From Aquificota bacterium (GTDB taxonomy: Bacteria > Thermosulfidibacterota > Thermosulfidibacteria > Thermosulfidibacterales > Thermosulfidibacteraceae), in NCBI GenBank assembly GCA_015494645.1, contig WGAU01000030.1:1-37499 (forward strand): DNA of 37,499 nt, given 5' to 3'. The position numbers were made by a program, and so were the translations under genes. Every line of letters starts with the position of its first letter. The stretch's first letter is position 1. Below the pieces are notes generated by a model, which was not told the origin of the DNA, ran no database searches, and worked only from the letters and a program-made list of their open reading frames with translations. Shown here one piece after another: positions 10,910 to 35,383 of the stretch.

Positions 10910-10911
10910 GG

Positions 10912-11889: not shown

Positions 11890-11935
11890 GTTGATGAATC
11901 TTTAAAATATATCTCACCTATTGTAAACAATCCCC

Positions 11936-15010: not shown

Positions 15011-15013
15011 GGC

Positions 15014-15799
15014 TCACACCCTCTTATAAACTATGACACCATCCATAACCTCTCTTTTGTAAGGAACCACCAGTCCTAAAAGAGTTTCTGTCTTGGATAT
15101 GAAAAGATAGCCTCCAGACTTGTGTATCTGCGCCAGATTATTGAGAGCCTCTGTACGCTTTTTTGTGTCAAAATATATGAGAAGATTCCTACAAAAAATA
15201 AAATCAAAAATACCCAAACTCTTTAAAAAGGACACATCAAAAACATTGCCCACATAATATTTAACCTTCAGCTTCAGCTCGGTTTTTACTTTATAAGCCC
15301 CGTTGTACTCCTCAAAGTACTTCCTCAAAAGAGCAGGAGGAACCCTCATCACAGACCGGCGGGAGTATATTCCCTTCCTCGCTATATCAATGGCCCTTTT
15401 GTCAACATCCACTCCCACAACGTCAAACCTAAAGGTGCTCCCCATAGACTCTAAAAGCTCCATAACTATACTCAAAGGCTCCTCACCAGTGGAACAGGGA
15501 ATGCTCAAGATCCTTGCTTTCAAAAGCCTTTCCCTTTTGATAAGTTTTGGCAGAAGGGAGATATGCTCTTTTTCTCTGAAAAAGTAGGTTTCGTTAACCG
15601 TTATCACTGATATGAAATCTTCAAAAAAGCGTTGATCTTTAAGTCTTCTCAGAAGATCCTGTTCTGTAAGGTTGTTCCTTAGCAGGAAAAGATCCACCTT
15701 AGAAGCTAATAACCTCATGTTAGACTTATCTGCCACTATGCCCAACCTGTGATATATCATATCAGAAACCGTTCTTAAGGTTTCGGTGCTTACTGCCAT
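15014..15799 (-). CDS. cheR: CheR-type protein-glutamate O-methyltransferase
   Basis: 261 aa. It has an N-terminal helical CheR_N region and a SAM-binding domain. An AAGGAAAGG SD is present. Confidence 0.8.
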
Positions 15800-15995
15800 A
15801 GCCCCTTTCCTTCAATCTCTCTCTTAACGCTTTTTGCCATCTCTTAGCCCATTCAAAACGCTTAGACAATAGCAAAAACGCCAAAAGGAAAAAGGGAATC
15901 CCTGGTAAAATGGGTAGAATTGCCCCTATTACTCCCAAACCAAAAAGGACTAAGGCTACAACAATTAGAAGAATAGCTTCAAGAGACCTTTTCAA
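15762..15995 (-). CDS. Small DUF454 (YbaN-like) inner-membrane protein
   Basis: [27 protein letters not shown] matches the YbaN core. The start is TTG, with a GAGGGAAAGGA SD upstream. It overlaps both neighbours. Confidence 0.5.
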
Positions 15996-16890
15996 CGGTC
16001 ATCCTTTCCCTCAGCCTACAGAAGGCACAGGGCGGATACGTGGTAGGATACCCACAGGAAGGACACTCCACAAGCTTCGGTTTCTCTTCATCCACAAAGA
16101 GCTTGTCTTTGACCTTTAAAAACTCCCTGTAAAACCTTATCTTCGTTCCGGGAGAGTTGTACTCAATGGTATTCAAGGCCCTTTTGTAAACAAGAGTGGT
16201 TGCACCCTTAGAATAAGGACACTCATCCGAAAGGAAATTTATTCCTGTAATAAAGGCGTAAACAGCCGTCTCTCTTTCGGTAAGCTCACAAAGTGGTTTA
16301 ACTTTTCTCACAAACTTTCCTTCCTTCGGCAAAACCGGACCCTGTCTGGCCAAATACCCAATACGCCATCCCAAAAGATTGGAAAACAGCACAGCCGTTT
16401 CGTCGTTAAGATTGTGCCCTGTGGCCAACACGTCAAAGCCATTCTCATAGGCGTATTTGTTCATTATATAGCGTTTAACCATACCACAGGCAGCACAAAT
16501 GGTTCTGGTTTCTCTTTGTTTAACATCGTCTATGGAAAAGCCGTATTCTTTCTGAAGATCAAAGACCTCAAGGGGATAACCCCTCTCCTCAGCAAAGCTT
16601 TCCACTATGCCCCTTGCCTTCTGGAAGTGGTTGTTCTCCATTATACCCAAGTCTATGAACAGAGCCGTAACGTTGTAGCCAAGCCTCTTGAGAACGTCCC
16701 ACAGAACCAAGCTGTCTTTGCCACCGGACACAGCCACAAGAACCTTAGAATCCTTGTCAAACATTCTGTACTTCCTCACCACCTCTTTGACTCGCTTGAG
16801 GCAAAATTCCACAATATGTTCATGGCAAAGAGCAATGCCGAAGGACCTGACCCTTATAACAGCTTCCTTTTTACAGAGCTTACACCTCAT
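15979..16890 (-). CDS. ttuA: TtuA/NcsA-type tRNA 2-thiolation PP-loop ATPase (Fe-S dependent)
   Basis: It has an N-terminal Zn finger (CKLCKK...CHEH), the PP-loop SGGKDS, cluster cysteines (CAACG, ECPYS) and a C-terminal Zn finger (CPSCG...CAFC). Confidence 0.8.
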
Positions 16891-17081
16891 CCCCGCGACA
16901 CCACCTCGTGAATTTTTATCTCATCACCATCCATAAGCCATTTATCTTCAGTTATGGGCTTTCCATCCTTAAGCACAACCACATCTTCAGGATTTATGTG
17001 CAGATTGAGCAACAGCCTTTCCAGCTTCACCCTCCTCTCATCAACTTCAAAGATCCTATCCCTAAAAATCACTTTTATCAT
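16887..17081 (-). CDS. ThiS/MoaD-fold small protein (TtuB-like sulfur-carrier candidate) ending in -SRG
   Basis: 64 aa. The pattern MIKVIF...VVLKDGKPI...[13 protein letters not shown] fits the ThiS profile. It has a strong GGTGAGGAGG SD. Its TGA overlaps the ttuA ATG (ATGA). Confidence 0.65.
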
Positions 17082-17991
17082 AACCCCTCCTCACCTTGGC
17101 TCCCTGAAAGGTATCAAGCTCTTCCAAGCGCTTCTTTATACAGTTTATAACCTCCGACTTCCTCAAGCACCAAACTGGAGCCACTAATCTATCCGCAGGC
17201 GCCTCTCCAGTCAACCTTTGAACTACAATATCAGATCTAAGATGCTCAAGAAATGCAACACACACATTAACATACTCATCCATTGTGAAAAGGAATAGCT
17301 CACCTTTGTTGTACATATCCTCGAGGGGAGTGTTCTTCAACACATGGAGACTGTGGATCTTAACTCCATCCACCGGTAGAGCCGATAGAAAACGGGCTGT
17401 TTCCACCATATCATCAAGATCTTCCCCTGGCAGACCGAGAATAACATGGGTACCCACAAGCACACCACGCCTTTTTTTTATCCTCAGAACCGCATCCACA
17501 AAGTGAGAAACTCCATGGCCTCTGTTTATAAGCTTCAATGTCCTGTAATGAGCCGACTGAAGTCCAACCTCCACCCACACCTCGTAAGCTTTTGCAAAGG
17601 ATTCCAGAAGATCCAGAACCTCTTCAGGCAAAAGATCGGGTCTTGTTCCCACCATCAGTCCAACTATGCGGGGATCAATTAATGCTCTCCTGTAAAGCTC
17701 CTCCAACCTTTCAACAGGGGCGTAGGTATTGGAAAAAGCCTGGAAGTAAACCATAAAAAGCTTGGCTTTGTATCTTTTCTCTGCGAATTCTATGCCCCTT
17801 CTTATCTGTTCCTCTATAGGAACATACGACGGAATGACCCCAGATCCTGTGTAATCACAGTAGATACACCCTCCCGGACCGATGCCGTTGATCCTGTGGG
17901 GACATCCCAAACCCAAGTTTACAGGTATCCTCTGAACTCTGACTCCGTACTTTCCCTTAAGATAAGCGTTGAAGGAGTAGTACCTATCCAT
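17062..17991 (-). CDS. TIGR01212-family (YhcC-like) radical SAM protein
   Basis: The N-terminal CPHR...GGCIYCD cluster is present, and the architecture resembles E. coli YhcC. Confidence 0.7.
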
Positions 17992-18820
17992 AGCGGGAAG
18001 AGAGGCTTAAGAGAAGCATAACCTCCCTCAAGATGGAAGCGCCCACCACAGCAGAATTTCCCGAAGGATCCCTTTCTGGACAGAGTTCCACAACATCTGC
18101 CCCTACAAGGTCAAGCCCCTTTAGAGATGCCAAAAAGTTCACAAGTTCCCTGTAGGAAACACCGCCCGGCTCCGGCGTTCCCACACCGGGACAGAAGGCT
18201 GGATCCAAAACATCCACATCCAAAGAGAGATACACCGGCCTATCGGACACAAGCTTCTTAATGTCATCCACACACGGCAAACTAAAAGGATGGAAGAAAA
18301 GGAATTTTTCCCTACAGTAACCAAATTCCTCCCTAAGGCCCGATCGCACTCCTACCTGACACACATCTACACCCAATTCCCTAACCCTTCTCATAACCGT
18401 GGCGTGGGAGAGCCTTTCCCCAAGATAAGTACCCCGCGCATCGGTGTGGGCATCAATATGTAAAACCACAAGGTTACTGTAAGATCCCGCGTAAGCTTCA
18501 ACAGCCGCAAGGGAAAGAAGGTGCTCTCCTCCGATACTAAGAACCTTTCTTCCCTCGCCCAAAAGCTTCTCAATCTCCTTCTTTATAAGCACCAGTCCCT
18601 TTTCTCTGTTGCCTATGGGAAGCTCAAGATCTCCAAGATCCCCTATGGATTCCTCCTCTATGTCCATATTTAAGTATGGACTGTAGGTTTCTATCCCATC
18701 GGAAACCTTTCTCACCTCAACAGGAGCGAACCTCGTGCCTGGTCTAAAGCTAACCGTTTCCTCAAAGGGAACCCCCAATATCACAACCTTCCCATCAGCC
18801 TTGGTTCCCAGAAACCTCAT
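17984..18820 (-). CDS. speB: Agmatinase (ureohydrolase family)
   Basis: The Mn-binding motifs of the arginase/agmatinase family are present: SIGGEH, DAHTD and SLDVDVLDP. Confidence 0.85.
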
Positions 18821-20048
18821 CTTCCCTCTCCACTTTTATCTTCCTTATACGCCTCCTCAAGGTATCCTCCACAGTTATTCTCCAGCCTTTACCGTAGCAA
18901 ACGCTCTCCCCTTTGAAAGGGACCCTGCCGAAGATGTGCATAACAAAACCACCGGCGGTATCCACATCCAAATCTTCAGGAGGCTCCTCTCCCAGAAGTC
19001 CAAGAAAATCTTCCAAAGGACACAATGCATCCACAAGGTAGGTCCCATCTCCCAAAGACTCTATCATTTCCCTTTCCTCGTCGTATTCGTCCCGTATTTC
19101 TCCCACAAGCTCTTCAAGAATGTCCTCCAAGGTAACAAGCCCCTCAACGGCTCCGTATTCGTTCACCACAATGGCCATGTCAATTCTGTTCTGCTGAAAC
19201 TCCCTCAACAGCTCCTGTACCGATTTTGTTTCAGGCACAAAATAGCAAGGTCTTATAAGATCTCTAAGGGCTTTTTCCTTTAACCCTTTAAACACAGGTA
19301 AAACATCTGTAATCTTTATATAACCTATGATATTATCCCTTTCCCCCTCATAAACGGGGATCTTAGAGTATCTGTGCTCTTTTACGAGAGTTTTTAACTT
19401 CTCAGGAGAGATGGATACCTCCACCATAAAGATGTCTGGTTCTGGAACCATTATCTCCCGCACTTGAAGCTCAGTAAACTCAAAGACTCTATATATCATT
19501 CTCCTCTCCTTCTCCTCCAGCTCTCCCCTGCTTTTGGCCTCATCCACGATAACCTTGAAGTCTTCCTCTTTAATTGCCACATCTTCCTTCCCAAAGACTA
19601 CCGTTACAAGATGACTTGCTCCCTCAAGCACCAGCCGCAAAGGAGCAAAAAACGCAGAGAGAAACCACAAAAAGGGAGAGGCTAAATAGGCCCATATACG
19701 ATTGTACCTAACCGCCACCACTTTGGGCAGGAGCTCCCCGTAGATCAGTAGGAAGAAGGTGGTTACAAAAACGGAAATCCCCACCCACTCTTCTCCAAAG
19801 GCATCCATAAATAAAGATGCAGACAGAGCCGAGATGGCCACGTTCACTATTTCGTTTCCCAAAAGCACCGTGGTGAGAAGCCTTTCTCTGTTGCGTAGAA
19901 GGGAAAGCATGATCCTTGAAAAGATGGTATTATCCCTGTCAAGGCTCTTAACTGCCACATCGTCAATAGAAAAGAAAGCTGTCTCAGATCCGGAAAAAAA
20001 GGCGGAAAGGTTGAAAAGCACGAAGAGGGCAATGATCTTAGCCCACAA
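18795..20048 (-). CDS. DUF21-CBS-CorC_HlyC family transporter (TlyC/CNNM-like)
   Basis: It has an N-terminal DUF21 TM domain, tandem CBS domains and a C-terminal CorC/HlyC domain. The start is TTG, with a GGGGGAG SD. Confidence 0.8.
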
Positions 20049-21372
20049 TGATCTCCCCCTCTGGATACCTTATCCTCTGGGTCTCGGCATCCTCCGCCAT
20101 GGCCACCACAGCGGTAAGGGGACCCACCCTTCCAATGAGCATAATAAGGGAAATGATGAGCTTTGAAACAGGGTGAAGAGAAGGAGTTATGCCTGTGCTC
20201 AGTCCAACCGTTCCAAAGGCGGAAACTACTTCAAAAGCCACCTTGATCAAAGACTGTTTCTCTATCAGCGAAACCACAAAAGTACCTAAACAGACCAAAA
20301 GCAAAGCCAGAAAACCAATGGCCACAGACCTGTGTATGATCTCATCGGAGATTCTGCGCTTGAAGATCACCGCATCTCTCTTGTTACGCACTATGGCTAC
20401 TACACTCAGTAAGATTACCAAAAAAGTGGAAGTCTTTATGCCCCCGCCGGTACCTCCCGGAGACGCACCGATAAACATAAGAATCATCAGAAAGAACCAC
20501 GTGGTCTCTTTAAGAGCGCTTATATCCACGGTGTTGAATCCTGCCGTTCTGGGAGTCACCGACTGAAAGAGGCTGGCCAAGATCTTCCCTTTAAAAGAAA
20601 GGTGAGAAAGCACATTGTTGCTCTCAAGGCCGTAAATCACCACGGTTCCAAGCAAAATCAAGACTGAAGTCATGAAAAGAACCACTCTGGTGTGAAAGGC
20701 CAATACGTAACGCTTGCCCTGCCGTTTGCTCAAAAAATACCTGTAAAGATCGTAAAGCACGGGAAATCCTATGCCTCCAGAAACTATGAGGAAACAAACC
20801 GTCAAGTTAACTACAACGGAGCTTGCAAATCTCGTAAGACTGTCGGAATAGAGGGAAAAGCCCGCATTGCAAAAAGCAGAAATGGAATGAAAGAAGGCCG
20901 AATAAACAGCACTTTCCCAGGACATTCCTCCTGCCAAAAAAGATACAGTCAAAAGCAAAAAGCCAAAGGCTTCTATAACAAAAGTGAAGAGGAATATGTG
21001 GACAAGAAGGCTTCCTAAGGTATCCATATCGTAAAAATTCAACGCATCCTGAAGGATAAGCTTCCCTCTCAAGGACATCCTCACGCCAAAAGCCACGGCG
21101 AAAAAGGCAGACAGGGTCATTATACCCAAGCCCCCAGCCTGTATGAGAAAGAGAACCACAAGCTGACCGAAATGGGTAAGGAAACTGCCCGTATCCACCA
21201 CCACAAGACCCGTTACACAGGTAGCTGAGGTGGCGGTGAAAAGGGCATCCACAAAAGACAAACCCTTCCCATCCACCGTAGCAATGGGAAGCATTAGCAA
21301 AAAGGTTCCAAAGAGTATGGCAAGGACAAAACTACCTATTATGATCCTTGACGGAGATAGACTACCCTCCAT
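20038..21372 (-). CDS. trkH: TrkH/KtrB-family K+ uptake membrane protein
   Basis: 444 aa and polytopic. It carries GLG-type selectivity filter motifs (QAGGLGIM). Confidence 0.85.
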
Positions 21373-21829
21373 TCTGCTCCTTCACCAGCTTCTTAAGAAC
21401 CTCCCAGAAATCGGATATATCCCTGAACTGCCTGTAAACTGAAGCGAACCTCACATAGGCAACCTCATCCACCTCCTTTATAAGCTCCATCACCCTCTCA
21501 CCTATTAAACTTGTGGGAACCTCCCTTTCCCCCAAATTGAGAAGATAACGCTCCACCTCGTCAACTATGCCTTCTTGCCTCTCCACGCTTACAGGCCTCT
21601 TCTCAAACGCCTTCCTTATCCCCGCCAAAAGCTTATCCCTGTTGTAAGGCTCCCTCCTACCGTCCTTCTTAACAACCATAGGCATGGTGTCATCTATGCG
21701 CTCAAAGGTGGTAAATCTTCTACCACAGGTCATACACTCCCTTCTCCTGCGTATGGAAAATCCATCCCTGCCCGTTCTGGTCTCCACTACCTTGGTATCA
21801 CCGGAAAGACAAAAGGGGCACTTCATCAC
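21362..21829 (-). CDS. nrdR: Transcriptional repressor NrdR
   Basis: The Zn ribbon is MKCPFC...[10 protein letters not shown]. An ATP-cone domain follows. Confidence 0.9.
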
Positions 21830-22269
21830 TTCACCTTGACCAGCTCCACCCCCGCCTCTTCAAGCATTTGGAGGGAAAGCTCGTCGGGATAGCCCTTCCT
21901 GTAATAGATGACCCTAACCCCAGCATTGATAAGCATTTTAGAACAAATCACGCAGGGGAAGGTAGTGGTGTAAATAGCAGCTCCTTTCACACTGACTCCG
22001 TGCAGGGCAGCCTGTATAATGGCATTCTGCTCTGCATGCAATCCCCTGCAAAGTTCGTGTCTCTGGCCCGAAGGGACTTTTAGCCGCTCCCTGAGACACC
22101 CAGTTTCTGAACAGTGGGTTATACCAGCAGGAGGGCCATTGTAGCCAGTAGCCAAGATCCTTTTATCCTTGACCAGAACCGCCCCCACCTTACGCCTAAG
22201 GCAGGTGGAGCGAGATGAGACAAGCTCCGCTATGTCAAGGAAATACTTATCCCAAGGAGGCCTTTCCAT
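21826..22269 (-). CDS. dCMP deaminase (ComEB-like)
   Basis: The cytidine/deoxycytidylate deaminase zinc motifs HAEQNAI and PCVICS are present. Confidence 0.85.
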
Positions 22270-23550
22270 CTACTCCTTTCCCAAGGCCTTCCTGTACTGC
22301 TTGAGAAGATCCGGATAGAGAGGAAATCTCTCACACAGGGACTTAACCTTTTCTTTAACCTCTTTGCGCACCTCTGGCTTATCTATGTTTTTGAGAACGT
22401 AAGATATGAGATCGCCTATCTCCTCCATTTCTCCCTCGCCCATGCCACGAGTGGTCAAAGCCGGAGTTCCTATGCGAATTCCACTGGTAACGGTAGGTTT
22501 CTCAGGATCAAAAGGAATCATATTCTTATTTACCGTTATACCAGCCTCTTCCAAAGCCTTCTCAGCCACATTACCTGTAATGCCTATAGGCCTAAGATCC
22601 ACAAGCATGAGATGGTTGTCTGTGCCGCCTGAAACTATCCTCAAGCCGTGCTTGACAAGTCTGTTGGCAAGAACCTTTGCGTTCTTAACTATCTGCCTTT
22701 GATACTCCTTAAACTCTTCAGTAAGAGCCTCCTTCAACGCCACTGCCTTAGCAGCGATGACATGCATCAAAGGGCCACCCTGAATACCGGGAAAGACCGT
22801 CTTGTCTATATCTTTTGCGAACTCTTCTTTGCACATAATCAGACCGCCTCTGGGTCCCCTGAGGGTTTTGTGGGTAGTGGTGGTGACAAACTCACAGTAA
22901 GGAACGGGAGATGGATGGATTCCCGCTGCCACAAGACCAGCTATGTGGGCAATGTCAGCTATAACACACGCTCCCACCTCATCGGCTATTTTTCTGAAGG
23001 CTTCAAAATCTATAACCCTCGGATAGGCACTTGCCCCAACCACTATAAGCTTGGGCTTGTGCTCCTTGGCCAAAGCCCTAACCTGATCGTAATCTATAGT
23101 CTCAGTGTCCCTTCTAACACCGTAAAAGACCACGTTGTACAGCTTTCCGGAAAAGTTCACCTTGGCTCCATGGGAAAGGTGTCCACCATGGGCAAGGTCC
23201 ATAGCAAGTATGGTATCTCCAGGCTTCAACACTGCCATATAAACGGCCATGTTGGCTTGGGTACCTGAATGGGGCTGAACGTTCACATGTTCCGCTCCAA
23301 AAAGCTCTTTAGCCCTCTCAATAGCCAACCTCTCTGCAACATCAACGAACTCGCACCCCCCATAATAACGCTTTCCAGGATACCCCTCCGCATACTTGTT
23401 GGTCATTACACAGCCCTGAGCCTCCATTACAGCAGTGCTTGCAAAATTTTCGCTGGCAATCATCTCAAGCTTGTACTCCTGCCTCTCCAACTCCCCTAAA
23501 ATTGCCTCCGCTATTTCTGGATCTACCTCCCAAACCCTAAGATGCTTCAT
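22270..23550 (-). CDS. glyA: Serine hydroxymethyltransferase
   Basis: 426 aa. The PLP-lysine region [14 protein letters not shown] is present. Confidence 0.95.
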
Positions 23551-24010
23551 CTAAGCCTCCCTCCTCACAAACGGCTTTCTCTATCTCCTCAAGCTTTGAA
23601 AGCCTTCTTGCATGCCTTCCCCCCTCAAATTTTTCGGTAAGCCAAATTTTGACAATGGCTTCCGCTTTATCAGGGGAAAGCACCCTCCCACCCATACACA
23701 AGACATTAGAATCGTTGTGAAGACGGCTCATCCTGGCGGTGTACTCGTCATGGCACAATGTGGCTCTAATATTGGGAAACCTATTGGCAACTATGCTCAT
23801 GCCTATCCCCGTACCACAACAGAGGATCCCCCTATCTACCTCTCCCCTCGCAACGGCCCTCGCCACCTTGGCAGCGTACTCCGGATAGTCAACAGACTCT
23901 TCTGAGTGGGTGCCAAAGTCCAAGACCTCGTGGCCCAAACTTTGAAGCAGACTCTTAACAAACTCTTTGAGTCTGTAGCCCCCGTGATCAGAAGCCAGTG
24001 CTATTCTCAA
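23537..24010 (-). CDS. rpiB: Ribose-5-phosphate isomerase B
   Basis: The motifs [10 protein letters not shown]...CGTGIGMSI fit RpiB/LacAB. The start is TTG, with a GAGGAGG SD. The TTG overlaps the upstream TGA (TTGA). Confidence 0.85.
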
Positions 24011-24342
24011 ATGGCCTCCTCGCCCCTTTCTCCTGTTCTTATCCTAACAGCATCAAGCACATCCATTACCAACAGTGTCTCACTTCCAGCTTCCCTACCG
24101 GCACACTTCAAGAAAGCATCCACAACTTCATCCACCGCATCATCATGAACCACCGTCTCAACAAACAGTCGGGGCAAAAAGTCAGAAGAAATACCGAGCT
24201 CCTTGAGAGACGGATCCCCTCCCTCCACAAAATCGGAATACTTCACCTCTGTAACCACTATACCCCTAATACCTATCTCTTCCAACCTTTCCTTAAGCTC
24301 ATCCAGCTTAAAGGGCCTTATTACAGCCGATATCTTCTTCAT
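24007..24342 (-). CDS. P-II (GlnB)-like signal-transduction protein with divergent T- and B-loops
   Basis: 111 aa. Compared with GlnB, the N-terminus ([32 protein letters not shown]) and C-terminus ([12 protein letters not shown]) are clearly homologous. The T-loop and the B-loop GDGKIF are replaced by [16 protein letters not shown] and REAGSETLL. Its ATG overlaps the rex TGA. Confidence 0.75.
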
Positions 24343-24980
24343 CAGTACATCTTGGTGTTGACGAAAAAGGTCAAAACTTCCAACTCAATTCCCAAATCAA
24401 TATGTCTCACTACTACCCCCTTAGGCACGCTAAGCCTCACCGGTGCGAAATTCAGAATCCCCTTTATACCGGACTTCACCAAGGCGTCAACCACCCTCTG
24501 TGCCTCGGAAAAATGTACAGCCACTATAGCTATCTTTATCTTCTTCTTACGGATAACTTCTTCCATCATAGACGCATGGTACAGCTCACACCCCTCAGGA
24601 ACGGCTTTCTTTCTCTCCTCGTCTATCACCTTGTCAAAAGCAACACTTATCTTGAACCCATGCCGCTTGAATCCCTGATAGGAAAGAAGAGCTCTGCCAA
24701 GGTTGCCCACTCCCACAAGGGCCACCTCCCACTCCCGATCCAAGCCCATTATACGCTTCAGATCCTCTTTAAGATCCTTTACGTAGTACCCTACCCCCCT
24801 GGTTCCGAACTCTCCAAAGTAAGCCAGATCTTTCCTAATCTGGGCGGGATTTATACCGCATTTCTTTCCCAGCTCCGCAGAAGAGATAACCTCTACTCCT
24901 TCCTCTTCCAGCTCAGAAAGACAACGCAGGTAAAGGGAAAGCCTTGATATGGTAACCTCAGGAATCTTCCACTTTCTCAT
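24342..24980 (-). CDS. rex: Redox-sensing transcriptional repressor Rex
   Basis: It has a winged-helix N-terminus and a Rossmann domain with [13 protein letters not shown] at 24980 is the preferred start (GGTGAGGG SD). The track's GTG is at 24989. Confidence 0.85.
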
Positions 24981-25001
24981 TTCCCTCACCCCACATAACT
25001 T

Positions 25002-25019
25002 TTGTGTACACTTTCACAA
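25002..25019. promoter_or_regulatory. Rex operator (ROP-like inverted repeat) upstream of rex
   Basis: The sequence TTGTGTACACTTTCACAA differs from the Rex consensus TTGTGAA-N4-TTCACAA at one position. It lies 22 nt upstream of the rex ATG on the transcribed strand. Confidence 0.6.
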
Positions 25020-25029
25020 AAATAGCCCA

Positions 25030-25058
25030 TAATAAAGGGGGCCTCAAGCCCCCTTCCA
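25030..25058 (-). terminator. Rho-independent terminator after atpE
   Basis: The minus-strand RNA forms the hairpin GGGGGC-UUGAG-GCCCCC, followed by UUUAUUAUGGGCUAUUUUU. It lies between the atpE stop and the rex promoter region. Confidence 0.65.
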
Positions 25059-25075
25059 ATCTTTTATCTACTTTC

Positions 25076-25444
25076 TTAGTGGGCTCCACCAGCTATAACG
25101 GCAACGGCCTTGAAGGGATCGGCAAAGAGCACGATCAGAGCCACAACCAAGGCGTAAATGGTCAGCGCCTCAATCATGGCCAAACCGATGATCATAGCCA
25201 CCTGGATCTTACCAGCGGCTTCGGGATTCCTGGCTATACCCTCCATAGCCGCCTTAACGCTCAAGCCCTGACCAATTCCACAAAGACCGGCGGCAAAGCC
25301 AAGTCCCCATCCCACCGCCAAGGAGGCAAACTTCAACATATTGAGGGCTGCCACCTTCACTTCACCCTCAGCAGCCATGGCTGGAAGGGCCAAAAGCACA
25401 ACCCCTAAAACCGCAGCTCCATACCTGAGAACCCTCTTCAACAT
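25076..25444 (-). CDS. atpE: F-type ATP synthase subunit c with an N-terminal signal-peptide-like extension
   Basis: The c-subunit hairpin motifs are [14 protein letters not shown]...ARNPEA...[12 protein letters not shown]. The roughly 35-aa N-terminal extension reads [30 protein letters not shown] at 25444 with AAGGAGG 6 nt upstream is preferred over the track's GTG at 25450. Confidence 0.85.
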
Positions 25445-25466
25445 CAACACCCTCCTTTAAAAAGTA

Positions 25467-26132
25467 TTAGTGCTCTTCTGTCTCTTCAACAGCCAGAGCT
25501 ATATAGACAATTGAAAGCAAAGTAAACACAAGGGCCTGCACGAGACCAAAGAACAAGGAAAGAAACATAAGAGGTATGGGAACAAGCAGAGGTACCAAAG
25601 TAAAAAGAATCAAAGCCAAGGTTTCCTCACCCATAATGTTTCCAAATAAACGCAAAGAAAGGGAAAGAACTCTGGCAAAATGGCCGATACTCTCTAAAAT
25701 AAACATAACAGGAGCCATCCAAGGAACAGGCCCACCGAAATGCTTGAGATAATTCACAAGACCATGCTTCTTTATTCCCCAGTAATGGTAATAGACAAAC
25801 ACCACAATAGCAGGTGCTATGGTGGTATTCCAATTACTTGTGGGAGATATAAACCCTGGAACGTTACCCATCCAGTTGGAAAATAGGATAAATAAAAACA
25901 AGGTGGCTATAAGGGGCACATGAGGCCTTACATCTCCCGGTATTATACCATCCATAAAATTGTACATTCCTTCAACATAAGCTTCCATTAGGTTCTGCAC
26001 TCCAGAGGGGATCAAGGAAAGCCTTTTAGTAGCAAAGAAAGACAGCACCACCAGAAGAACAAAGACGTAAAGAGCCAATACTATATGAAAGTATTTATGG
26101 GGCAAGGGATTAAGTATAAAAGGTTCATACAT
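25467..26132 (-). CDS. atpB: F-type ATP synthase subunit a
   Basis: The motif [13 protein letters not shown] contains the essential Arg. It has 5 to 6 TM helices. Confidence 0.9.
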
Positions 26133-26145
26133 CCTCCTGCACCTC

Positions 26146-26499
26146 CTAAATGTTCTTCAACCTGGCAAACTCGGTGAAGGGGATAAGCACTATTAAGCTC
26201 AACCCCACCACAGTGGCTATGGGGTTAATCGCCTTTGAGTAAAACAACACCCCCAGTACAACAGCCATAAACAGATACTTGAAAACCTGAACGCCCCAAA
26301 ACAGGACACTTGATCCCGCCTCAACAACTTCTCTACAAACGGTGCACAAAATATAAAAATCTCCACAAGCCAAAAGGGACCCTACAAGCACCCCTAAAAA
26401 TACGTCCCACCTTCCAAACAGCATACTAAAAAGAATAAACAGACCTGCGAGCCAAAACCCCTTAACCTGCATCCTCCTTATTATCTTGTGCTCCCCCAT
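26146..26499 (-). CDS. atpI: ATP synthase protein I-like small membrane protein
   Basis: 117 aa with 4 predicted TM helices. It sits immediately upstream of atpB. Confidence 0.55.
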
Positions 26500-26505
26500 C
26501 TCGCC

Positions 26506-26739
26506 TTAAACTTCTCCTAACCTCTTTAAATACCGCTCTGAACCCAGCCACGATCCCAAGAATAAAAAAGCCATCATACCCCACGGGGAGGTTCCAAACT
26601 TTTTATCCACAAGAAGACCAAGTACCAAACCTATTACAATTGAAATCACAAGCTCTAAGCCTATAGCACTTAACCTCACCAGCTCTCTTAAAAGACCACC
26701 CGTCTCTTTATCCAACTTCACCGGATCCTCCCGGAGCAC
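26506..26739 (-). CDS. atpZ: AtpZ/AtpR-family small membrane protein (ATPase gene-1 family)
   Basis: 77 aa with two TM helices. It takes the first position in the atp cluster. The start is GTG. Confidence 0.5.
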
Positions 26740-26802
26740 TTACTTAACAACTACCCATATCTCAGTCAACTGAACTCCATTGCATTTATGCCAAACTAAG
26801 TT

Positions 26803-27573
26803 TTAAGACTTCTTCTCCTGTATAAACCCTTTTATTAGCTCTATGGGGATGGGAAAAACCACGGTGCTTGAGTTCTCAGCACTTATCTCCACAAGGGTCT
26901 GAAGATACCTAAGTTGAATGGCCACGGGATGCTCCCCTATAATATCAGCCGCTTCAGCAAGCCTCTTGGCCGCCTGATACTCTCCCTCTGCGGCAATTAT
27001 CTTTGCCCTTCTCTCTCTTTCTGCTTCCGCCTGCCTTGCCATGGCTCTCTGCATATCTTGAGGCAGATCAACATGCTTTATCTCCACGGTGGTTACTTTA
27101 ATGCCCCAAGGATCGGTGTGCTCGTCCAGTATACTCTGAAGCCTTGCATTGATTTTATCCCTGTGGCTGAGTATCTCATCTAATTCCACCTCTCCCAAGA
27201 CACTTCTGAGGGTGGTCTGGGCTAGCTGGCTTGTAGCATAAAGATAATCCTCCACCTCTATAACCGCCTTCTCCGGGGAGACCACCCTGAAATAAACCAC
27301 AGCGTTCACCTTTATGGAAACATTGTCCTTGGTTATAACATCCTGCGGCGGCACATCCATAACCACCGTCCTCAAACTCACCTTAACCACCTTGTCTATA
27401 AAGGGAATCACTATGATGAGCCCCGGTCCCTTGGTAGCATGGTACCTTCCAAACCTGAATATGACTCCTCTCTCGTATTCCCTCAAAACCTTAACGGCAG
27501 AGGCAATGAATATGACTCCGAAGAACAGAAAGACCAGTCCAAAGTTGCTCAGAAACAGAAAAATATACTCCAC
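26803..27573 (-). CDS. SPFH/band-7 (stomatin/prohibitin-like) membrane protein
   Basis: It has an N-terminal TM helix, an SPFH domain and a coiled-coil [17 protein letters not shown]. The start is GTG, with an AGGAGGT SD. Confidence 0.85.
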
Positions 27574-27584
27574 GATCCAACCTC

Positions 27585-28868
27585 CTAAATTTTCTTAAGC
27601 GCCGCCTCAATGGCGTAAAGGGTTCTGTCTATGTCCTTGTCAGTGTGGGCCACGGAAACAAAGGCCGCCTCAAACTGACTGGGGGCAAAATATACTCCAT
27701 TTTCCAGCAGGGCCCAGAAGAACTTGGAGTAAAGCTTAGTGTCACTCTTGACCGCATCGTCATAGGTCTCCACCGGCCCTTCAGTGAAGAATATACAGGA
27801 CATGGAAGCCACACCATTAATCCACACAGGGATGCCTTTGGCCTCAAATAGCCTTTTGGCTTCATCTGCCAAGCGTTTTCTTTTTCTTTCCAACTCCTCA
27901 TATGGGTTGTCTCTTCTGAGGATCTCCAACGTCTTTAAACCAGCCGCCATGGCCACAGGATTACCGGAAAGGGTTCCGGCCTGATACACGGGACCATCGG
28001 GAGCCACATGATCCATTATCTCTGCCCTTCCCCCATACGCACCCACAGGAAAACCGCCTCCTATGATCTTGCCAAGGCATGTGAGATCCGGCTCTACCTG
28101 ATAAAGCTTTTGCGCACCACCGTAGGAAACCCTGAATCCCGTTATCACTTCATCAAATATGAGAAGGGCGCCGTATCTTTCTGTAATCTCCCGCAAGCCC
28201 TGCAAGAAGCCTTCCTTAGGCGGAATAACCCCGGCATTACCCATAACAGGTTCCAGTATAACGCAGGCTATGTCCTCCCCGTACTTTTCAAAAAGGCTCT
28301 CCACACTGCTAAGATCGTTAAACCTCGCTAATAGAGTGTGTCTGGCAAAATCTTCGGGCACTCCAGGTGTTCCCGGAATTCCAAAGGTCAACACGCCCGA
28401 TCCTGCCTTGACCAGAAGATAGTCCACATGGCCATGGTAACATCCCTCAAACTTTACCACTTTATTCCTCTTGGTGTATCCTCTGGCCAACCTGATGGCA
28501 CTCATGGTTGCCTCAGTTCCGGAGTTTACAAATCTCACCTTCTCAATAGACGGAACCGCTTCCACCACCGCCTCTGCCATGGACACCTCAAGCTCGCATG
28601 GTATACCAAAGGAAGTTCCCTTCTCTGCAACTTCCTTTACGAAAGAGAGCACCTCAGGATGGGCGTGACCCAATATCAAAGGTCCCCAGGAACAAACGTA
28701 ATCAATATACTCGTTCCCATCCACATCGTATATCTTGGAACCCCTGCCTTCTTTTACGAAGAACGGATCACCACCAACAGATTTGAAGGCTCTTACAGGA
28801 CTATTGACACCACCGGGAAGAAACCTTTTAGCTTTTTCGTAAAGCTCTGCACTCCTTTCACGCTTCAT
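27585..28868 (-). CDS. hemL: Glutamate-1-semialdehyde 2,1-aminomutase
   Basis: [13 protein letters not shown]-terminal motif and a class-III aminotransferase fold. ATG at 28868 with an AGGAGGGG SD is preferred over 28889. Confidence 0.9.
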
Positions 28869-29902
28869 ATCAGCCCCTCCTGTTTCCATGGTTTTGGAAG
28901 GAAAATCGCCTTGTAAAGCTCCAAGGCGTATCTATCTGTCATGCCCGAAAGGTAATCCACCACTCGTCTCTCTACGCTATCTTCTTCTCTACTCCAACCT
29001 TTAATAGCCTCAGGATGCTCGCAGAAATAACAAAACAGAGACTCAAGAACACCATAAGCCTTTCTAAACTCCTCCCTCACCTGTGGAGCTCTGTAAACCC
29101 TTTCATACAGAAACTTCCTGAGTCTGTGCAAAAGGTGGAGACCTTCCTCGGACATGGAAACCCTTTGATAACCCATCTTTCTGGTGGTCTCAATCACATC
29201 TTTAACCATGGCATCTATTCGCTCACCGTGACTTTCCCCAAAAAAGGCCACACATTCTTTAGGCAAATCGGCCAACGAGATGAGCTTAGCCCTCAGGGCA
29301 TCGTCTATGTCATGGTTTACATAGGCTATTATATCCGAAATTCTTACCACCTCAGCTTCCAAGGTAAGAGGCCTGTTTTCATCTTTCGGAAGGATAGCCC
29401 CAAGTCCTTTAGAATGTTTAAGAATTCCGTCCCTCACCTCCATAGTGAGGTTCAAACCTTTCCCATTTCTCTCCAGAATGTCCACAACCCTAAGACTCTG
29501 CCGCGCATGGTGAAACCCTTCCTTAGAAAGCCTGTTCAAGACCTCCTCTCCCGCATGCCCAAAGGGAGTATGACCAAGATCGTGCCCTAAAGCTATCGCC
29601 TCTGTAAGGTCCTCGTTTAACCTAAGGGCCCTGGATATGGTCCTTGCTATCTGAGAAACCTCCAAAGTATGGGTAAGACGGGTTCTATAATGATCCCCAA
29701 GGGGTGCAAGAAAAACTTGAGTCTTATGCTTGAGCCTCCTGAAAGACTTGGAGTGTAGGATCCTATCCCTGTCCCTCTGAAAACAGGTCCTTACATCACA
29801 TTCTATTTCCTCTATCAATCTTCCAGCGCTTTCTGCACTCTTGGCTGCCTTGGGGTGTAGAAACCTCTTCTCCCAAGACTCTATCTCTTCTCTAAGGGTC
29901 AT
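28865..29902 (-). CDS. dgt: dGTPase-like HD-domain triphosphohydrolase
   Basis: The HD motif [14 protein letters not shown] matches the dGTP triphosphohydrolase family. Confidence 0.8.
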
Positions 29903-30078
29903 CTCCTCTCTTTTATGTGACGAATAAACTTCTCCCTCTCTTTAGCCTTTTCTGGAGCCACCTGTCTCATCCTGTCTACTATACTTTTTCTTTTGTGTAT
30001 TAGTTCCTCTAATCTCTCAAAAAGAAACTCCAGTTCTTCGTCCACAAGGTTCAGTTCCTTTTCTAAATCGTTTTTCAT
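29899..30078 (-). CDS. Unlisted 59-codon ORF encoding a highly charged, helical small protein
   Basis: [59 protein letters not shown]. Its ATG overlaps the ligT TGA and its TGA overlaps the dgt ATG, so both junctions are ATGA. It falls below the track's 60-aa cutoff. Confidence 0.45.
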
Positions 30079-30638
30079 CCCCCACCTCCCAGCTCTACTA
30101 TCTCAAGCTTAACGTAAAGTGCCCCTTCAGGTTTCAAAATACTCCTATAAAGGACAATATTATCCACAACAAACTCACCGTAAAGCCTCTCCTCACCACA
30201 AAAGCTTCTTATAAACCTTCTCTCATCCGGAGAAAGCCTCTTCAATCTGCCCAAAGTGATATGGGGATGAAACGCTCTTCTCTCTTTAGGAAAGCCCAAA
30301 GAGACCATGGACTTCTCAACTAAAGATTGCAGCTTAGCAAGTTCATCGGTAAGTTCAACCCCACACCAAACCACCTTTGGCCGGACAAACCCCGGAAAGA
30401 CTCCCTTACCTCTTATTCTAACCCTAAAAGGACCAACCGAACCAGAACAATCCCTAAGGGCAGAAACTATATTTGGCACCTTGACCTCTTCAACTTCTCC
30501 TAAGAATTTCAAAGTTATGTGGTAAGACTCCCTGGAAGGATAGGAAGCCTTTATACCATAGTCCTTCAACCTCATGGCCTCTTTATGCAGGGTATCCTTA
30601 ATATCCGAAGGGATATCAACTGCCACAAACAACCTCAA
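30075..30638 (-). CDS. thpR: RNA 2',3'-cyclic phosphodiesterase / 2'-5' RNA ligase (LigT/ThpR)
   Basis: Two H-x-T-x motifs are present, YHITLKF and PHITLGR, within the 2H phosphoesterase fold. Confidence 0.85.
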
Positions 30639-31828
30639 TTGAGACGCCTCCTCAACACATCCAGCGCCGCCTTAGCAAACGCCATCTTGTTGCCCAATCT
30701 ATCGTAAGAAAAGCGAAACTCAAAGCTATCCACACGCCCATCAATGCTCACACCTACATACACCAATCCCACAGGCTTCCCGGGAAGTGCCCCCGCTGGT
30801 CCGGCTATCCCTGTGGTGGAAAGCCCCACCTGGGATCCCAAAAGTTTTCTTACCCCTTCTGCCATCTGTTGGGCAACTTCATGGCTGTAAACTGTGTAAT
30901 TTTCTATGTCTTTTTTATCCACCCCAAGGAGCTTTTCCTTGATCTCATCAAGGTAAGCCACAACACCCCCTCTAAAGTACTCCGACGAACCAGAAACATT
31001 GGTTACAAGATGAGCGAGAAGTCCACCTGTGCAGGATTCTGCAACGGCAAGGGTAAGCCCTCTCTCCTCAAGGAGTCTCCCCACCACCCGGGAAAGCTCT
31101 TCATCGTCCATACCAAACAGATTCTCTCCCAAAGCCCTCCTCAAAACAGAATCTACAAGTCCCTCCAGCTTTGCATTGCCCTTCACATTCACCCACACTT
31201 CAGCGTCTCTGATCACAGTTCCCCACCTTACCCCCAACGTCCCAAGGGCTTCCTTAACCAAAGTGTTAACCTCAGACTCCTTCAAACCAAAGGTCTTGTA
31301 CACCTTGAAAAAATCGCTTCCCATAACACACAACTCCCCCACAACTTTGGGAAAGAGCTCCTTCAACTCCCAAGGCACACCAGGAAAGGCAGCCAAAAGA
31401 ATTTTATCCCTCACCCAGAAGGCAGGGGCCAGCCCCCTGGAACTCAGAACATACCGGGCCCCTTCGGGAATTAAAGCCATCCTCTTGTGCTCTTCCCTCG
31501 GTTCCCTTCCCCTTGCTTCAAACTTTGAGCGTATGTCACGCCAAATTTCCTCAACAAAGACGAGCTTCCTCCCGAGAAAATCCGCTACAGCCTCCCTTGT
31601 TCTATCGTCCTCGGTTGGCCCTAAACCACCGCACACAAACACCCCATCAGCGTAGTTTGAAAGAAACCTGAGGAGCTCCGAAATCATAGAAACATCATCC
31701 CTCACTTCCACCACATCCTCAACCTTAACTCCCACCGAAGCCAAAAAGGACTTCATAAAAGAAGCGTTGGTATTCTCCACAAGTCCGTCCACCACTTCAT
31801 CACCAACGAAAAGCAGAGAGACTCTCAT
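30635..31828 (-). CDS. cinA: CinA-family protein: N-terminal MoCF-binding domain plus C-terminal NMN deamidase (PncC-like)
   Basis: 397 aa. It carries the N-terminal GGLGPTEDD motif and a C-terminal CinA domain. Confidence 0.85.
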
Positions 31829-31837
31829 GTAAGGTCC

Positions 31838-32368
31838 TCAATAAGAAAGGGGATCGGACTCACTCCTTGCTAAATACTGAAGCCTGCTAACTCCATCAAT
31901 CTCATTAATAATTCTTGCCACCGCTGGTGGAACAAGCTCCTCCCAAGGCTCTCCCCTTAACATCCTCTCCCTTATGGTGGTGGCACAGTAAAGCTCCCTT
32001 TTGATCATCTTGAGCGGAACCACATCAACACCAGCCTCCATAAGCAGAATCTGGGTTAGGGGATTACCCGTATAAGCCCTCTTAAAAGGGGGAAAGAGGG
32101 AGCGTATATAAGAAGCCCACATGGCGTTGTTCTCTATGTTGGAGTAGGCTCCTATGTAAACTCTCTTTAAATCTATCCTTGCCTCTACCAAAGCCTCATG
32201 GATCATCCAGATACGCTCACCACAGGTGAATGGACTCTTCAAATTGTAATTAAAGTTAGCCGATCCCACAGCAATAATTATCTCGTCATTCTCCTCAAGT
32301 ATCCTTTTTACTACTTCAAGGTGGCCCCTGTGAAAGGGTTGGAACCTTCCCATGTAAAGAGCCCTCAT
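31838..32368 (-). CDS. nadM: Archaeal-type nicotinamide-nucleotide adenylyltransferase
   Basis: 176 aa. [10 protein letters not shown] is the nucleotidyltransferase H-x-G-H motif of the archaeal NMNAT type. Confidence 0.75.
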
Positions 32369-32371
32369 GGC

Positions 32372-33373
32372 CTACCTCACCACCACCCTTCCACTACCCT
32401 TAACTACGTATCCTACACAGGGATACCTGTACAGTCCAGCCCTATCCTCGGGAACGGCCACGAGAAGTCCTCCGGAAGTCTGCGGATCAAAAAGGACCAT
32501 CTCCCAATCTCCCACATTCCTTTCAAACACCACCTTCTGGGAAAAGTATTCCCTATTCCTGTATGCTCCTGCGGGAATAAGTCCCATGGAAGCATACTCA
32601 AAGGCCTCTTCAATAACAGGGATTTTCTCCACCTCCACCACAATATCAAACTCACCGGAAGAGCACATCTCAAGGGCATGGCCGATAAAGCCAAATCCTG
32701 TAACATCTGTTGCGGCAACAGCTCCCACCTCAAGCATCTTCAACGAAGCCTCTTTATTTAATTTCCTCATAGACTCAACAGCTTTCTCCACCGCCTCTTC
32801 TGAAGCAAGACCGGCCTTTATGGCAGTGGTAACTATCCCAACCCCTAGGGGCTTTGTTAGATAGAGCAAAGCACCTTCTTCAAGGGTACTGTTTCTCACC
32901 ACCCTTTCCGGATGAACCCTGCCCACAACACACAATCCGTATTTCGGCTCCTCATCATCTACACTGTGCCCTCCAACAAGGAATGCCCCTGCTTCCTTAA
33001 CCTTCCTCAAACCTCCCACCACAACGCCCCTTGCAACCTCCGCAGGAAAAGCACAGGGAAGACAGAGGATATTCAGGGCAAACCAAGGGTCTCCCCCCAT
33101 GGCGTAAACATCACTTAAAGCGTTGGCAGCGGCTATTTCGCCGAAAAGCTCCGGATCATCCACCACAGGAGTGATAAAATCAACAGTAGCTACAAGGGCA
33201 AGGTCATCCGCTACCTTTACAACTGCCGCATCCTCAAAACCACCAAGTCCGGCAAGTACCTCCTCACCTAAAGGTAAAGCCAACCCCTCCAGAACTTCTG
33301 CAAGGTCCGCCGGACCTATCTTGGCCCCTCAGCCAGAGGCCTTAACCATCTGGGTAAGCTTTATTTCCTTCAT
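32372..33373 (-). CDS. selD: Selenide, water dikinase (selenophosphate synthetase), a selenoprotein with an in-frame UGA
   Basis: The track's ORF (TTG at 33283) is truncated. Reading the same frame upstream gives [30 protein letters not shown]..., which matches the SelD N-terminus (E. coli ..IRLTQYSHGAGCGCKISP..). The TGA falls at the catalytic Cys/Sec position. ATG at 33371-33373 overlaps the yedF TGA. PurM-like domains follow. Confidence 0.85.
33304..33316 (-). other. SECIS-like hairpin 3' of the selD UGA
   Basis: The mRNA reads GGUCC-GGC-GGACC starting 12 nt after the UGA. A possible outer pairing CAAG/CUUG extends it. This is the position expected for a bacterial SECIS. Confidence 0.5.
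33329..33331 (-). other. Selenocysteine (UGA) codon of selD
   Basis: This in-frame TGA is codon 15 of the extended selD reading frame. It aligns with the active-site Cys/Sec of SelD. Confidence 0.8.
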
Positions 33374-33948
33374 ATCCTCACCACGGAAGCAGATCCCAAC
33401 AGGCTCTCAACGGTATCGTACATATTGGTCACACTTCCCACCACAAGCTTATCCTTCAAACCAAAGTACTCCAAACATGTGCCACAGGATAATATCTCTA
33501 CTCCTTCTCTCTCAAGTTCCTTCAAAACATCCGCCACTTTAGAGCCTTCGGTGGTAAGATAGACACCGCGATTTATAAAGATAAGTTTTTTAGGCTTTAC
33601 TGAAGACTCTCTCAAAGTCGCTATAAACGCCCTTATTAGAATCTGGCCAAGCTCCCTATCCTCACCCATGGAATCTGACAAAAAGATCATGACCTTATCG
33701 GATGTTGTTTTGTCTTCAACCTGAGGTAGAGAACAGGCGTATCCCTTGGTGATAATAAGGCGATACCCCCACTCCTCCTCTTTAATTTCAAGCGAGCACC
33801 CCTGCTTCTGAGCAAACCTCGCCACATTCTCCTTAGAAGCGGGATTGTCAACAAGCACCTCTACAATGCCCTCTTCAATGCCCTCAAGGGCCTCTTTGGT
33901 CATGAGAACCGGCTTGGGACAGGCACATCCTCTCGCATCAACAACCAT
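33370..33948 (-). CDS. yedF: Selenium metabolism protein YedF (TusA-like N-terminus plus DsrE-like C-terminus)
   Basis: CACPKP is the TusA-type Cys motif. The C-terminal DsrE/DsrF-like domain gives the architecture of the selD-associated YedF family. ATG at 33948 with a GGAGG SD is preferred over the track's GTG at 33954. Confidence 0.75.
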
Positions 33949-35303: not shown

Positions 35304-35383
35304 CTGAAGAATGAAATACTCAACCGACAACTGATTTTCAAATTGAATAGACAAAAACAGAAGGATCAAAGAATAGAAAAAAG

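Follow-up and report, generated by a model that had tools for sequence, protein, structure and literature searches.

In the window, as I call the whole stretch of DNA analysed here (37.5 kilobases (kb), contig WGAU01000030.1), a gene for a non-canonical PII-family protein of 111 amino acids (aa) directly follows rex, the gene of the NADH/NAD+-sensing transcriptional repressor Rex, and precedes rpiB, the gene of ribose-5-phosphate isomerase B. It was found that the constant partner of this PII-like gene is the rpiB operon, not rex. It is likely that the locus consists of two originally separate transcription units which have been fused in the lineage of the window. The PII-like protein itself is an undescribed, narrowly distributed PII variant, and nothing points to a new kind of system. 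A taxonomy look-up revealed that the source organism belongs to Thermosulfidibacterota under the present classification, not to Aquificota.

The PII-like gene and the rpiB operon

All genes from rex (24342..24980) through a radical-SAM gene lie on the minus strand, and the string of open reading frames (ORFs) is gap-free down to position 17062, as judged from the ORF coordinates. The PII-like gene (24007..24342; Pfam P-II) is the first gene of an rpiB-glyA-dcd-nrdR-trkH operon. Its stop codon overlaps by 4 nucleotides (nt) with the TTG start codon of rpiB (23537..24010; Pfam LacAB_rpiB, 206 bits). Then follow glyA for serine hydroxymethyltransferase (22270..23550; Pfam SHMT, 584 bits), dcd, a gene of the dCMP/cytidine deaminase family (21826..22269; Pfam dCMP_cyt_deam_1, 84 bits), and nrdR, which encodes the repressor of ribonucleotide reductase genes with its Zn ribbon and ATP-cone (21362..21829; Pfam PF22811 and PF03477). 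The remaining part (17062..21372) consists of trkH, a CNNM/CorC-type transporter gene, an arginase-family gene, and the radical-SAM gene, which were identified by Pfam matches and all overlap or abut. The trkH gene (20038..21372) lies between nrdR on its upstream side and the CNNM/CorC gene on its downstream side. The overlap between rpiB and glyA is 14 nt in the window (23537..23550), where RpiB has 157 aa. In the close relative L056 (94-96% identical), RpiB has 152 aa and its gene abuts glyA without overlap; the 3′ end of rpiB thus varies among very close relatives.

Is this arrangement common among relatives? Relatives were found by using Rex homologs of graded identity as anchors, and their contigs were inspected. 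The PII-like-rpiB-glyA-dcd-nrdR-trkH block directly follows rex in six lineages, namely the window, L056, L061, L062/63, Thermosulfidibacter takaii (L053), and L058, four of which have a spacer with a promoter-like element between the two genes. In five other lineages, rex has no adjoining PII-like gene. Convergent AtuA genes come after rex in L059/60, whose Rex is 87% identical to that of the window, convergent rpsI-rplM genes do so in L064 and L065 (74% identical), and yet other genes are found in L066 and L067. The relatives with other genes after rex include cases with 87%, 74%, 69%, and 64% Rex identity.

Two further lineages (L068-L071) have the PII-like gene without rex. Their PII-like genes, which encode P0246 and P0244, head the identical rpiB-glyA operon and have a divergently transcribed cobU gene upstream; neither rex nor the core of a Rex box is present near the PII-like gene in L068-L071. 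In L068, the order of the operon is the same as in the window through to the radical-SAM gene. A TGTG-N8-CACA core does occur in or beside a peptidase M28/M20 gene (L068:2621-2636 / L069:1707-1722), at a distance of about 3.4 kb to the PII-like gene, probably by chance. In every relative, the stop codon of the PII-like gene overlaps with the start codon of rpiB by 1 or 4 nt, and the block led by the PII-like gene is rpiB-glyA-dcd-nrdR-trkH-corC.

A contig scan with the PII-like protein of the window gave 52 loci, and these were without exception canonical PII genes (112 aa) from Desulfobacterota and other groups. Among 132 loci of canonical PII in other bacteria, not one had rex, rpiB, glyA, dcd, nrdR, or trkH within 4-5 kb. 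Canonical GlnB/GlnK genes are linked to amtB, glnA, or nif genes. No such gene was found near the PII-like gene among the ORFs annotated over 9396..36625.

Could Rex and the PII-like protein be a dedicated, co-evolved sensor pair, with the PII-like protein acting on Rex as a modulator or feeding a second signal into the same regulon? The initial annotation had spoken of a Rex/P-II-like sensor pair and had named non-conserved adjacency in relatives as a refutation. The pair is not supported by this test, as the adjacency is not conserved as a unit among the relatives. The genes do overlap in the window and L056 and are neighbours in T. takaii, L058, L061, and L062/63, and a protein that has lost its canonical ligands may plausibly have a new ligand or partner. 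However, L059/60, L064, L065, L066, and L067 have rex with no PII-like gene behind it, L068-L071 have the PII-like gene with neither rex nor a Rex box beside it, and a spacer with its own promoter-like element separates the genes in four of the adjacent cases. Furthermore, the identity to the window protein is 82-87% for Rex but 54-63% for the PII-like protein, whose T-loop shrinks from 19 to 9 residues, unlike an interface that co-evolves with a slow partner. A dedicated sensor pair is thus very improbable. A stop/start overlap in one genome is no evidence of a functional pair.

Loss of a spacer between rex and the PII-like gene

In the window, the junction reads ...TAC TGATG AAG, so that the TGA codon of rex and the ATG codon of the PII-like gene share one base (24340..24344). 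The junction had been described as ATGA before; it is TGATG, with a 1-nt overlap. L056, a relative with 96-99% identity, likewise has no spacer, and its rex stop codon adjoins the ATG codon of the PII-like gene. In contrast, the two genes are separated by a spacer of 45-66 nt in L053, L058, L061, and L062.

It was revealed that a common element, TTGCA[TA]-N17-TGnTAAATC-N8-start codon, precedes the PII-like gene in L053 (395-436), L058, L061 (4150-4190), L062 (4170-4211), and L070 (1823-1872), with identical spacings in all five. In L070, the gene upstream is cobU, yet the element and its spacings are unchanged. Since L070 has the element where cobU, not rex, lies upstream, the element seems to travel with the PII-like gene. 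The region from the element to the start codon has no Shine-Dalgarno sequence in the relatives. Judging from its conservation, its geometry, and its TGn motif, the element is probably an extended -10 promoter which yields a leaderless mRNA. A second Rex box before the PII-like gene was searched for in the relatives, and none was found.

The window seems to have no counterpart of this element. A motif search of the whole window for it gave four weak matches, while six were expected by chance, and none was near 24342. In a scan with the sigma-70 consensus, matches were about as frequent as expected by chance, and neither rex nor the PII-like gene had a convincing one upstream on the minus strand. 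The whole window was also compared with Rfam at the gathering thresholds, which gave no match, so that the region is not explained by a riboswitch or leader RNA.

The most parsimonious explanation is that a single deletion in the window lineage fused the operon to rex. According to the alignment of the relatives, the TGATG sequence would be the fusion point, and the fusion seems to be derived and confined to the lineage of the window and L056, where it probably puts the operon under Rex control. Because the window operon has no promoter-like element of its own, the PII-like gene and the tightly packed downstream genes are probably transcribed from the Rex-controlled promoter.

The following scheme is likely. 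The first unit would be an autoregulated rex gene, whose operator lies just after the atpE terminator in the promoter region of rex. From what is known of the family, Rex would bind to this operator and repress transcription at a low NADH/NAD+ ratio. The second unit would be an operon on the ten-kilobase scale, led by a lineage-restricted and rapidly diverging GlnB-type PII paralog, which is followed by rpiB, glyA, the dCMP deaminase gene, nrdR, trkH, the CorC/CNNM gene, the arginase-family gene, and the radical-SAM gene. In the relatives, this unit would use its own promoter-like element, and its mRNA is probably leaderless because a Shine-Dalgarno sequence is missing. In the window lineage, a deletion of the 45-66-nt spacer would have made the rex stop codon overlap with the PII-like start codon. 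Since the spacer is deleted and the stop and start codons overlap, the second unit is most likely co-transcribed with rex, and the PII-like ORF is most likely translated by termination-reinitiation at TGATG. Genes for ribose-5-phosphate, one-carbon, and deoxynucleotide-precursor metabolism would thereby have come under NADH/NAD+ control secondarily and in this lineage alone. The initial annotation had assumed that an NADH/NAD+-responsive promoter drives the PII-like gene and possibly rpiB, glyA, and later genes. This is plausible in a limited sense, namely for the window lineage, which has lost the spacer.

Several observations weigh against this scheme. The element is poorly conserved and poorly recognizable in L068, and it matches the Escherichia coli sigma-70 hexamers at 3-4 of 6 positions each. 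In the window, a promoter may lie inside the 3′ part of rex. There is also a weak sigma-70-like match inside the PII-like gene (24285..24257), which is at chance level.

Rex, its operator, and the F0 genes

The 212-aa product of rex was confirmed to be Rex. It scores 276.5 bits against the NCBIfam equivalog model NF003993 (cutoff 217) and has the domains PF06971 (Put_DNA-bind_N, 79.9 bits) and PF02629 (CoA_binding, Rossmann, 55.6 bits), and the Rossmann motif GVGNLG is present in its translation. The gene could alternatively start at an in-frame GTG codon (24989); the rex gene of L056 is called from ATG, with 212 aa.

The Rex operator TTGTGAAAGTGTACACAA (25002..25019, minus strand) ends 22 nt 5′ of the rex ATG codon, where a near-consensus Rex box had been noticed in the initial annotation. 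It has one mismatch to TTGTGAANNNNTTCACAA and is the sole match with up to one mismatch in the 37.5 kb, while 0.01 would be expected by chance. The TTGTG-N8-CACAA core likewise occurs once in the window (0.00 expected). The consensus TTGTGAAW4TTCACAA is experimentally supported for Staphylococcus aureus Rex (PMC2883068). Upstream of rex, the block TGTGA..GT...CACA is invariant in 9 of 9 relatives, whose Rex proteins are 64-99% identical to that of the window. Thus, a real and phylogenetically conserved Rex operator upstream of rex is well supported.

Directly 5′ of the Rex box lies a predicted intrinsic terminator of atpE, the gene of the F0 c-subunit (25035..25055, minus strand). It was found in a hairpin scan as a G+C-rich hairpin followed by a T-rich tail (GGGGGCTTGAGGCCCCC TTTATTAT). 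It is preceded by the F0 ATP-synthase genes atpZ-like, atpI, atpB, and atpE (25076..26739, minus strand), which were identified by Pfam matches. In the window and in L059-L067, these F0 genes are found upstream of rex without F1 genes. All nine relatives keep the order atpI-atpB-atpE, terminator hairpin, Rex box, and rex, even where Rex is only 64% identical. The linkage of the F0 genes, the terminator, the Rex box, and rex is thus much more conserved than that of rex and the PII-like gene. A similar arrangement of rex beside F0 genes presumably occurs in Desulfovibrio.

Replaced loops of the PII-like protein

The PII-like protein matches the Pfam family P-II (PF00543) with 59.5 bits (cutoff 25) over residues 1-105 of 111, and no other Pfam family matches it at E <= 0.01. 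It was aligned with E. coli GlnB and GlnK, Synechococcus PII, and its nearest database matches. Both termini are near-identical to those of canonical PII: the N-terminal sequence MKKI.A.I.PFKLDE and a C-terminal segment of 12 residues. The initial annotation was thus right in calling the protein a PII homolog, and also in regarding the T-loop (residues 35-54; 24181..24240) and the B-loop (residues 81-90; 24073..24102) as replaced. In the canonical numbering, the substitutions are T29V, R38F, Q39V, Y51I, and K58R; the T-loop therefore lacks Arg38, Gln39, and Tyr51. In the B-loop, which has the form TGxxGDGKIF in canonical PII, G87-D88-G89-K90 became G-S-E-T.

The same tendency was found in the other family members. 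Gln39 is absent in all of them, and P0242 is the only one that has Lys58. In PII, 2-oxoglutarate is bound mainly by these two residues, and Lys58 anchors both loops (PMC6908673). Despite the variation of the B-loop, an acidic residue at the canonical Gly89 position is kept across the family. The length of the T-loop is 19 residues in the window protein and 17, 16, or about 9 residues (L062) in others, and a motif L-x-E-L-G-[IF]-S is found in the T-loop in five of seven lineages. The family alignment has 36 invariant columns, which include G27, V64, both C-terminal arginines, RGE, and a C-terminal segment of 10 residues.

How exceptional is the loss of the two signatures? The patterns Y-[KR]-G-[AS]-[AE]-Y for the T-loop with Tyr51 and [ST]-x3-G-[DY]-G-[KR]-[IV]-[FW]-[LIVM] for the B-loop, which I take to be those of PROSITE PS00496 and PS00638, were run as regular expressions on the 8 family members and 191 other PII matches. 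The T-loop pattern was found in none of the 8 family members and in 188 of the 191 others. The B-loop pattern was found in 0/8 and 184/191, respectively.

An AlphaFold2 (AF2) monomer model was built on a 49-sequence alignment. It shows the PII fold with a mean predicted local distance difference test (pLDDT) score of 80.8, and the confidence is low only in both loops and the C-terminal tip. The modelled secondary structure consists of strand 2-8, helix 10-23, strand 29-35, a loop, strand 56-65, helix 67-81, a loop, and strand 90-94. The top 50 Foldseek matches are all GlnB, GlnK, or GlnZ, with query-normalized template modelling (TM) scores of 0.63-0.73. The nearest solved structure by sequence is Aquifex aeolicus PII (PDB 2eg1).

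Profile searches had been suggested for placing the protein among the PII subfamilies, and they place it in no characterized PII-like subfamily. When the family profile was searched against the PDB at E <= 10, the matches were only GlnB/GlnK/NifI-type chains and three chance matches, and no chain named SbtB, CPII, PstA/DarA, or CutA was among them. With PF00543 as the sole Pfam match, membership in SbtB, CPII, PstA (DarA), or CutA was rejected. Since the matches in the PDB and profile searches are of the GlnB/GlnK type and none comes from the PII-like subfamilies, the PII-like protein is, as far as its sequence tells, a derived offshoot of canonical GlnB-type PII outside the known PII-like subfamilies.

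The T. takaii homolog is publicly annotated as ‘nitrogen regulatory protein P-II 1’. Is the PII-like protein, then, just the ordinary nitrogen regulator GlnB of the organism? Its full-length homology to PF00543 and the Aquifex aeolicus PII as the best PDB relative would agree with this idea. However, it scores far under the NCBIfam equivalog cutoffs, with 84.6 against 202 bits for GlnB (NF008111) and 70.7 against 181 bits for GlnK (NF007946). It also lacks the 2-oxoglutarate ligands Q39 and K58 (PMC6908673), R38, the GDGK B-loop, and Tyr51, and it has no amtB, glnA, or nif gene nearby within 9396..36625. An ordinary GlnB is extremely improbable, and the name ‘nitrogen regulatory protein P-II’ is a misleading annotation for these genes.

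The PII-like protein keeps the PII fold and presumably the trimer, together with the residues G27 and V64 on the adenosine side and the two C-terminal arginines. Both 2-oxoglutarate ligands (Q39 and K58) are lost, and so are R38, Tyr51 as the site of modification, and the GDGK B-loop that clamps the phosphates. From these residues, I infer that it cannot act as a canonical ATP/2-oxoglutarate nitrogen sensor and is not uridylylated. Because the arginines and G27 are kept and a new acidic residue replaces the phosphate clamp, the clefts of the trimer would bind some anionic ligand.

Distribution and evolution of the family

In a word-indexed search, only three close clusters were found, namely one with 96% identity, the T. 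takaii protein (61%), and one JGI sequence (61%), followed by canonical PII proteins at about 50%. A profile search added four more divergent members, P0241, P0242, P0244, and P0246. In an exhaustive HMMER search of 1.84 billion representatives clustered at 50% identity, only three family clusters stood above the plateau of canonical PII (146 vs 117 bits). A 182-aa tandem canonical PII was also above the plateau, only through matching twice. Based on the T. takaii homolog, the label ‘Thermosulfidibacteraceae’ of P0134, and the taxonomy look-up, the family is confined to Thermosulfidibacter relatives (Thermosulfidibacterota). In the literature available, no description of a rex/PII-like pairing, a Rex-PII link, or the PII-like subfamily was found.

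Some other unusual PII sequences were encountered. P0243 (169 aa) and P0329 (182 aa) are ‘one-and-a-half’ tandem canonical PII proteins in which residues 1-60/70 are repeated, and they inflate the profile scores. They are either genuine internal duplications or assembly artefacts on short contigs. P0333 (102 aa) and P0386 (107 aa) are degenerate PII proteins outside the family, with shortened T-loops, non-GDGK B-loops, and canonical-like scores. A scan of metagenome contigs with P0333 gave 80 canonical PII loci, and P0333 itself was not among them.

The PII-like protein is the fastest-evolving protein of the operon. Its identity to the window protein is 54-63%, while that of the others is 82-87% for Rex, 87-88% for GlyA, 78-82% for Dcd, 85-86% for NrdR, and 67-75% for RpiB. 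RpiB is thus the second-fastest protein of the operon. The ratio of nonsynonymous to synonymous substitution rates (dN/dS) of the PII-like gene is 0.053 between the window and L056 (dS 0.42) and 0.057 between L053 and L058; the neighbouring genes have values of 0.017-0.041. The loops have dN values of 0.5-1.3, which are near saturation; in the closest pair, even the loops are constrained, with a dN/dS value of 0.059.

Such a gene might be a decaying, functionless glnB relic that is carried at the head of an essential operon. This would explain why it evolves faster than any other gene of the operon, why both functional loops are near saturation and variable in length, and why both canonical signatures are lost. 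In contrast, every lineage has an intact ORF of similar length, the dN/dS values of the gene are similar to those of rpiB and glyA, the loops of the closest pair are constrained, and 36 columns including the 10-residue C-terminal segment are invariant. There is little chance that the gene is a relic. Judging from the substitution pattern, it is a working gene under purifying selection, not a pseudogene, and its loops seem to have drifted or adapted between lineages.

Candidate targets of the PII-like protein

As a best guess, the PII-like protein would serve as a regulatory subunit whose ligand has changed, and it would act on a product of its own operon rather than be a partner of Rex. RpiB is the first candidate, because its gene is always translationally coupled to the PII-like gene and because it is the second-fastest protein of the operon. 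This assignment is tentative. The theme of the operon is suggestive, as it would join the supply of ribose-5-phosphate, methylene-tetrahydrofolate, and dUMP with the dATP/ATP-sensing NrdR.

The main alternative to RpiB is a transporter encoded in the operon, either TrkH for K+ uptake or CorC/CNNM for Mg2+, which the PII-like protein would regulate by plugging or gating. Both transporter genes belong to the gap-free string of the operon, in the window as well as in L068. No gene for a gating subunit of the trkA/ktrA type was found beside trkH among the annotated ORFs of the window, although trkA could lie elsewhere in the genome. The control of co-encoded transporters is described as being among the most conserved functions of PII (bioRxiv 10.1101/2023.08.10.552651). 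On the other hand, trkH and corC are four and five genes downstream, while rpiB overlaps with the PII-like gene in all lineages. Moreover, plugging by GlnK or SbtB uses a long and conserved T-loop, but here the T-loop is the least conserved part and has about 9 residues in L062. A transporter is an improbable target, and RpiB is still the better candidate.

Some caution is needed about the proposed role. The conserved gene order is weak evidence that the PII-like protein and RpiB are functionally linked, since the members all belong to a single bacterial family, in which GlyA is 83-96% identical and synteny is conserved. The loss of ligand binding is deduced from residues and from an AF2 monomer with low confidence in both loops. 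In addition, there may be some functional relation with rex, which is adjacent in several lineages (window, L056, L061, L062/63, T. takaii, and L058).

Taken together, the eight proteins could be a new PII subfamily of Thermosulfidibacteraceae with a changed pocket and a new target, RpiB or another operon product, and the module could have been wired to Rex in the window lineage by a promoter deletion. Taken as a whole, this picture is possible rather than probable.

Other genes of the window

Genes for a CheR methyltransferase and a PMT_2 glycosyltransferase-like protein (13399..15799) have a stand-alone PilZ-domain gene (14675..15010) between them. Its product also has 111 aa, and this length prompted its consideration as a second PII; it was rejected, as it is not a PII. 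A sulfur-relay-like cluster (32372..35107) has a gene for a TusA-DsrE fusion protein (33370..33954), with a class-V aminotransferase/cysteine-desulfurase-like gene (33938..35107) on one side of it and an AIRS-family gene (32372..33283) on the other. On the plus strand, a 244-aa ORF (36689..37423) has no Pfam match at E <= 1e-4.

Implications and comparison with known systems

Few signal integrators are as widespread as the PII proteins, and a new ligand or target has come to light with each PII-like branch described until now (SbtB, CPII, PstA/DarA, and PotN). The present branch is small and confined to one thermophilic family, of which T. takaii is cultivable. If the proposed role is true, a PII-type regulator of pentose-phosphate or nucleotide-precursor enzymes would widen the range of functions known for the superfamily, and the wiring to Rex would link the redox state to the supply of nucleotide precursors. 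The locus would be a natural example of regulon growth, in which a whole biosynthetic operon comes under a redox repressor through the deletion of 45-66 bp with its promoter.

Compared with GlnB and GlnK (2eg1; E. coli GlnB 1pil/2pii and GlnK 1gnk), the PII-like protein has the same length, aligns over the full length with about 44-50% identity, and, as modelled, has the same beta-alpha-beta ferredoxin-like fold. It also retains G27, V64, and both C-terminal arginines. In contrast, the T-loop is replaced and variable in length, the B-loop has G-S-E-T with a conserved acidic residue, and the gene lies before rpiB-glyA rather than near amtB, glnA, or nif genes. Canonical PII proteins are among the most conserved proteins, whereas the PII-like protein evolves several times faster than its neighbours.

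SbtB (with SbtA), CPII, PotN, PII-NG, and PstA/DarA likewise have a PII fold with non-canonical loops and are co-transcribed with genes outside nitrogen metabolism. The logic is probably the same, that is, a small trimeric ligand sensor acts on a co-encoded protein (for SbtB, PMC9974498 and PMC8042125). However, the sequence relationship is only that of the general PII fold, and the PII-like protein has no R-loop or C-terminal extension. Here, the products of the partner genes are soluble enzymes that act in the metabolism of pentoses, one-carbon units, and nucleotides.

Rex and its operator are ordinary and of an already-known kind. Members of the Rex family repress transcription by binding to DNA at a low NADH/NAD+ ratio, and the Rex of the window resembles them in its winged-helix and Rossmann architecture, its equivalog-level score, and the 18-bp inverted repeat directly 5′ of rex. 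Streptomyces coelicolor rex-hemACD is presumably another case of a Rex repressor with an operator at its own promoter. What is peculiar to the clade is the fixed place of rex after the split F0 cluster atpI-atpB-atpE, and what is peculiar to this genome is the long biosynthetic operon appended to rex. The fusion of operons by deletion of an intergenic promoter is a common phenomenon, and the locus shares with it the stop/start overlap, the lack of a Shine-Dalgarno sequence, and the loss of a spacer that is seen in comparison with relatives. The distinctive consequence here would be that genes for nucleotide precursors have joined the Rex regulon.

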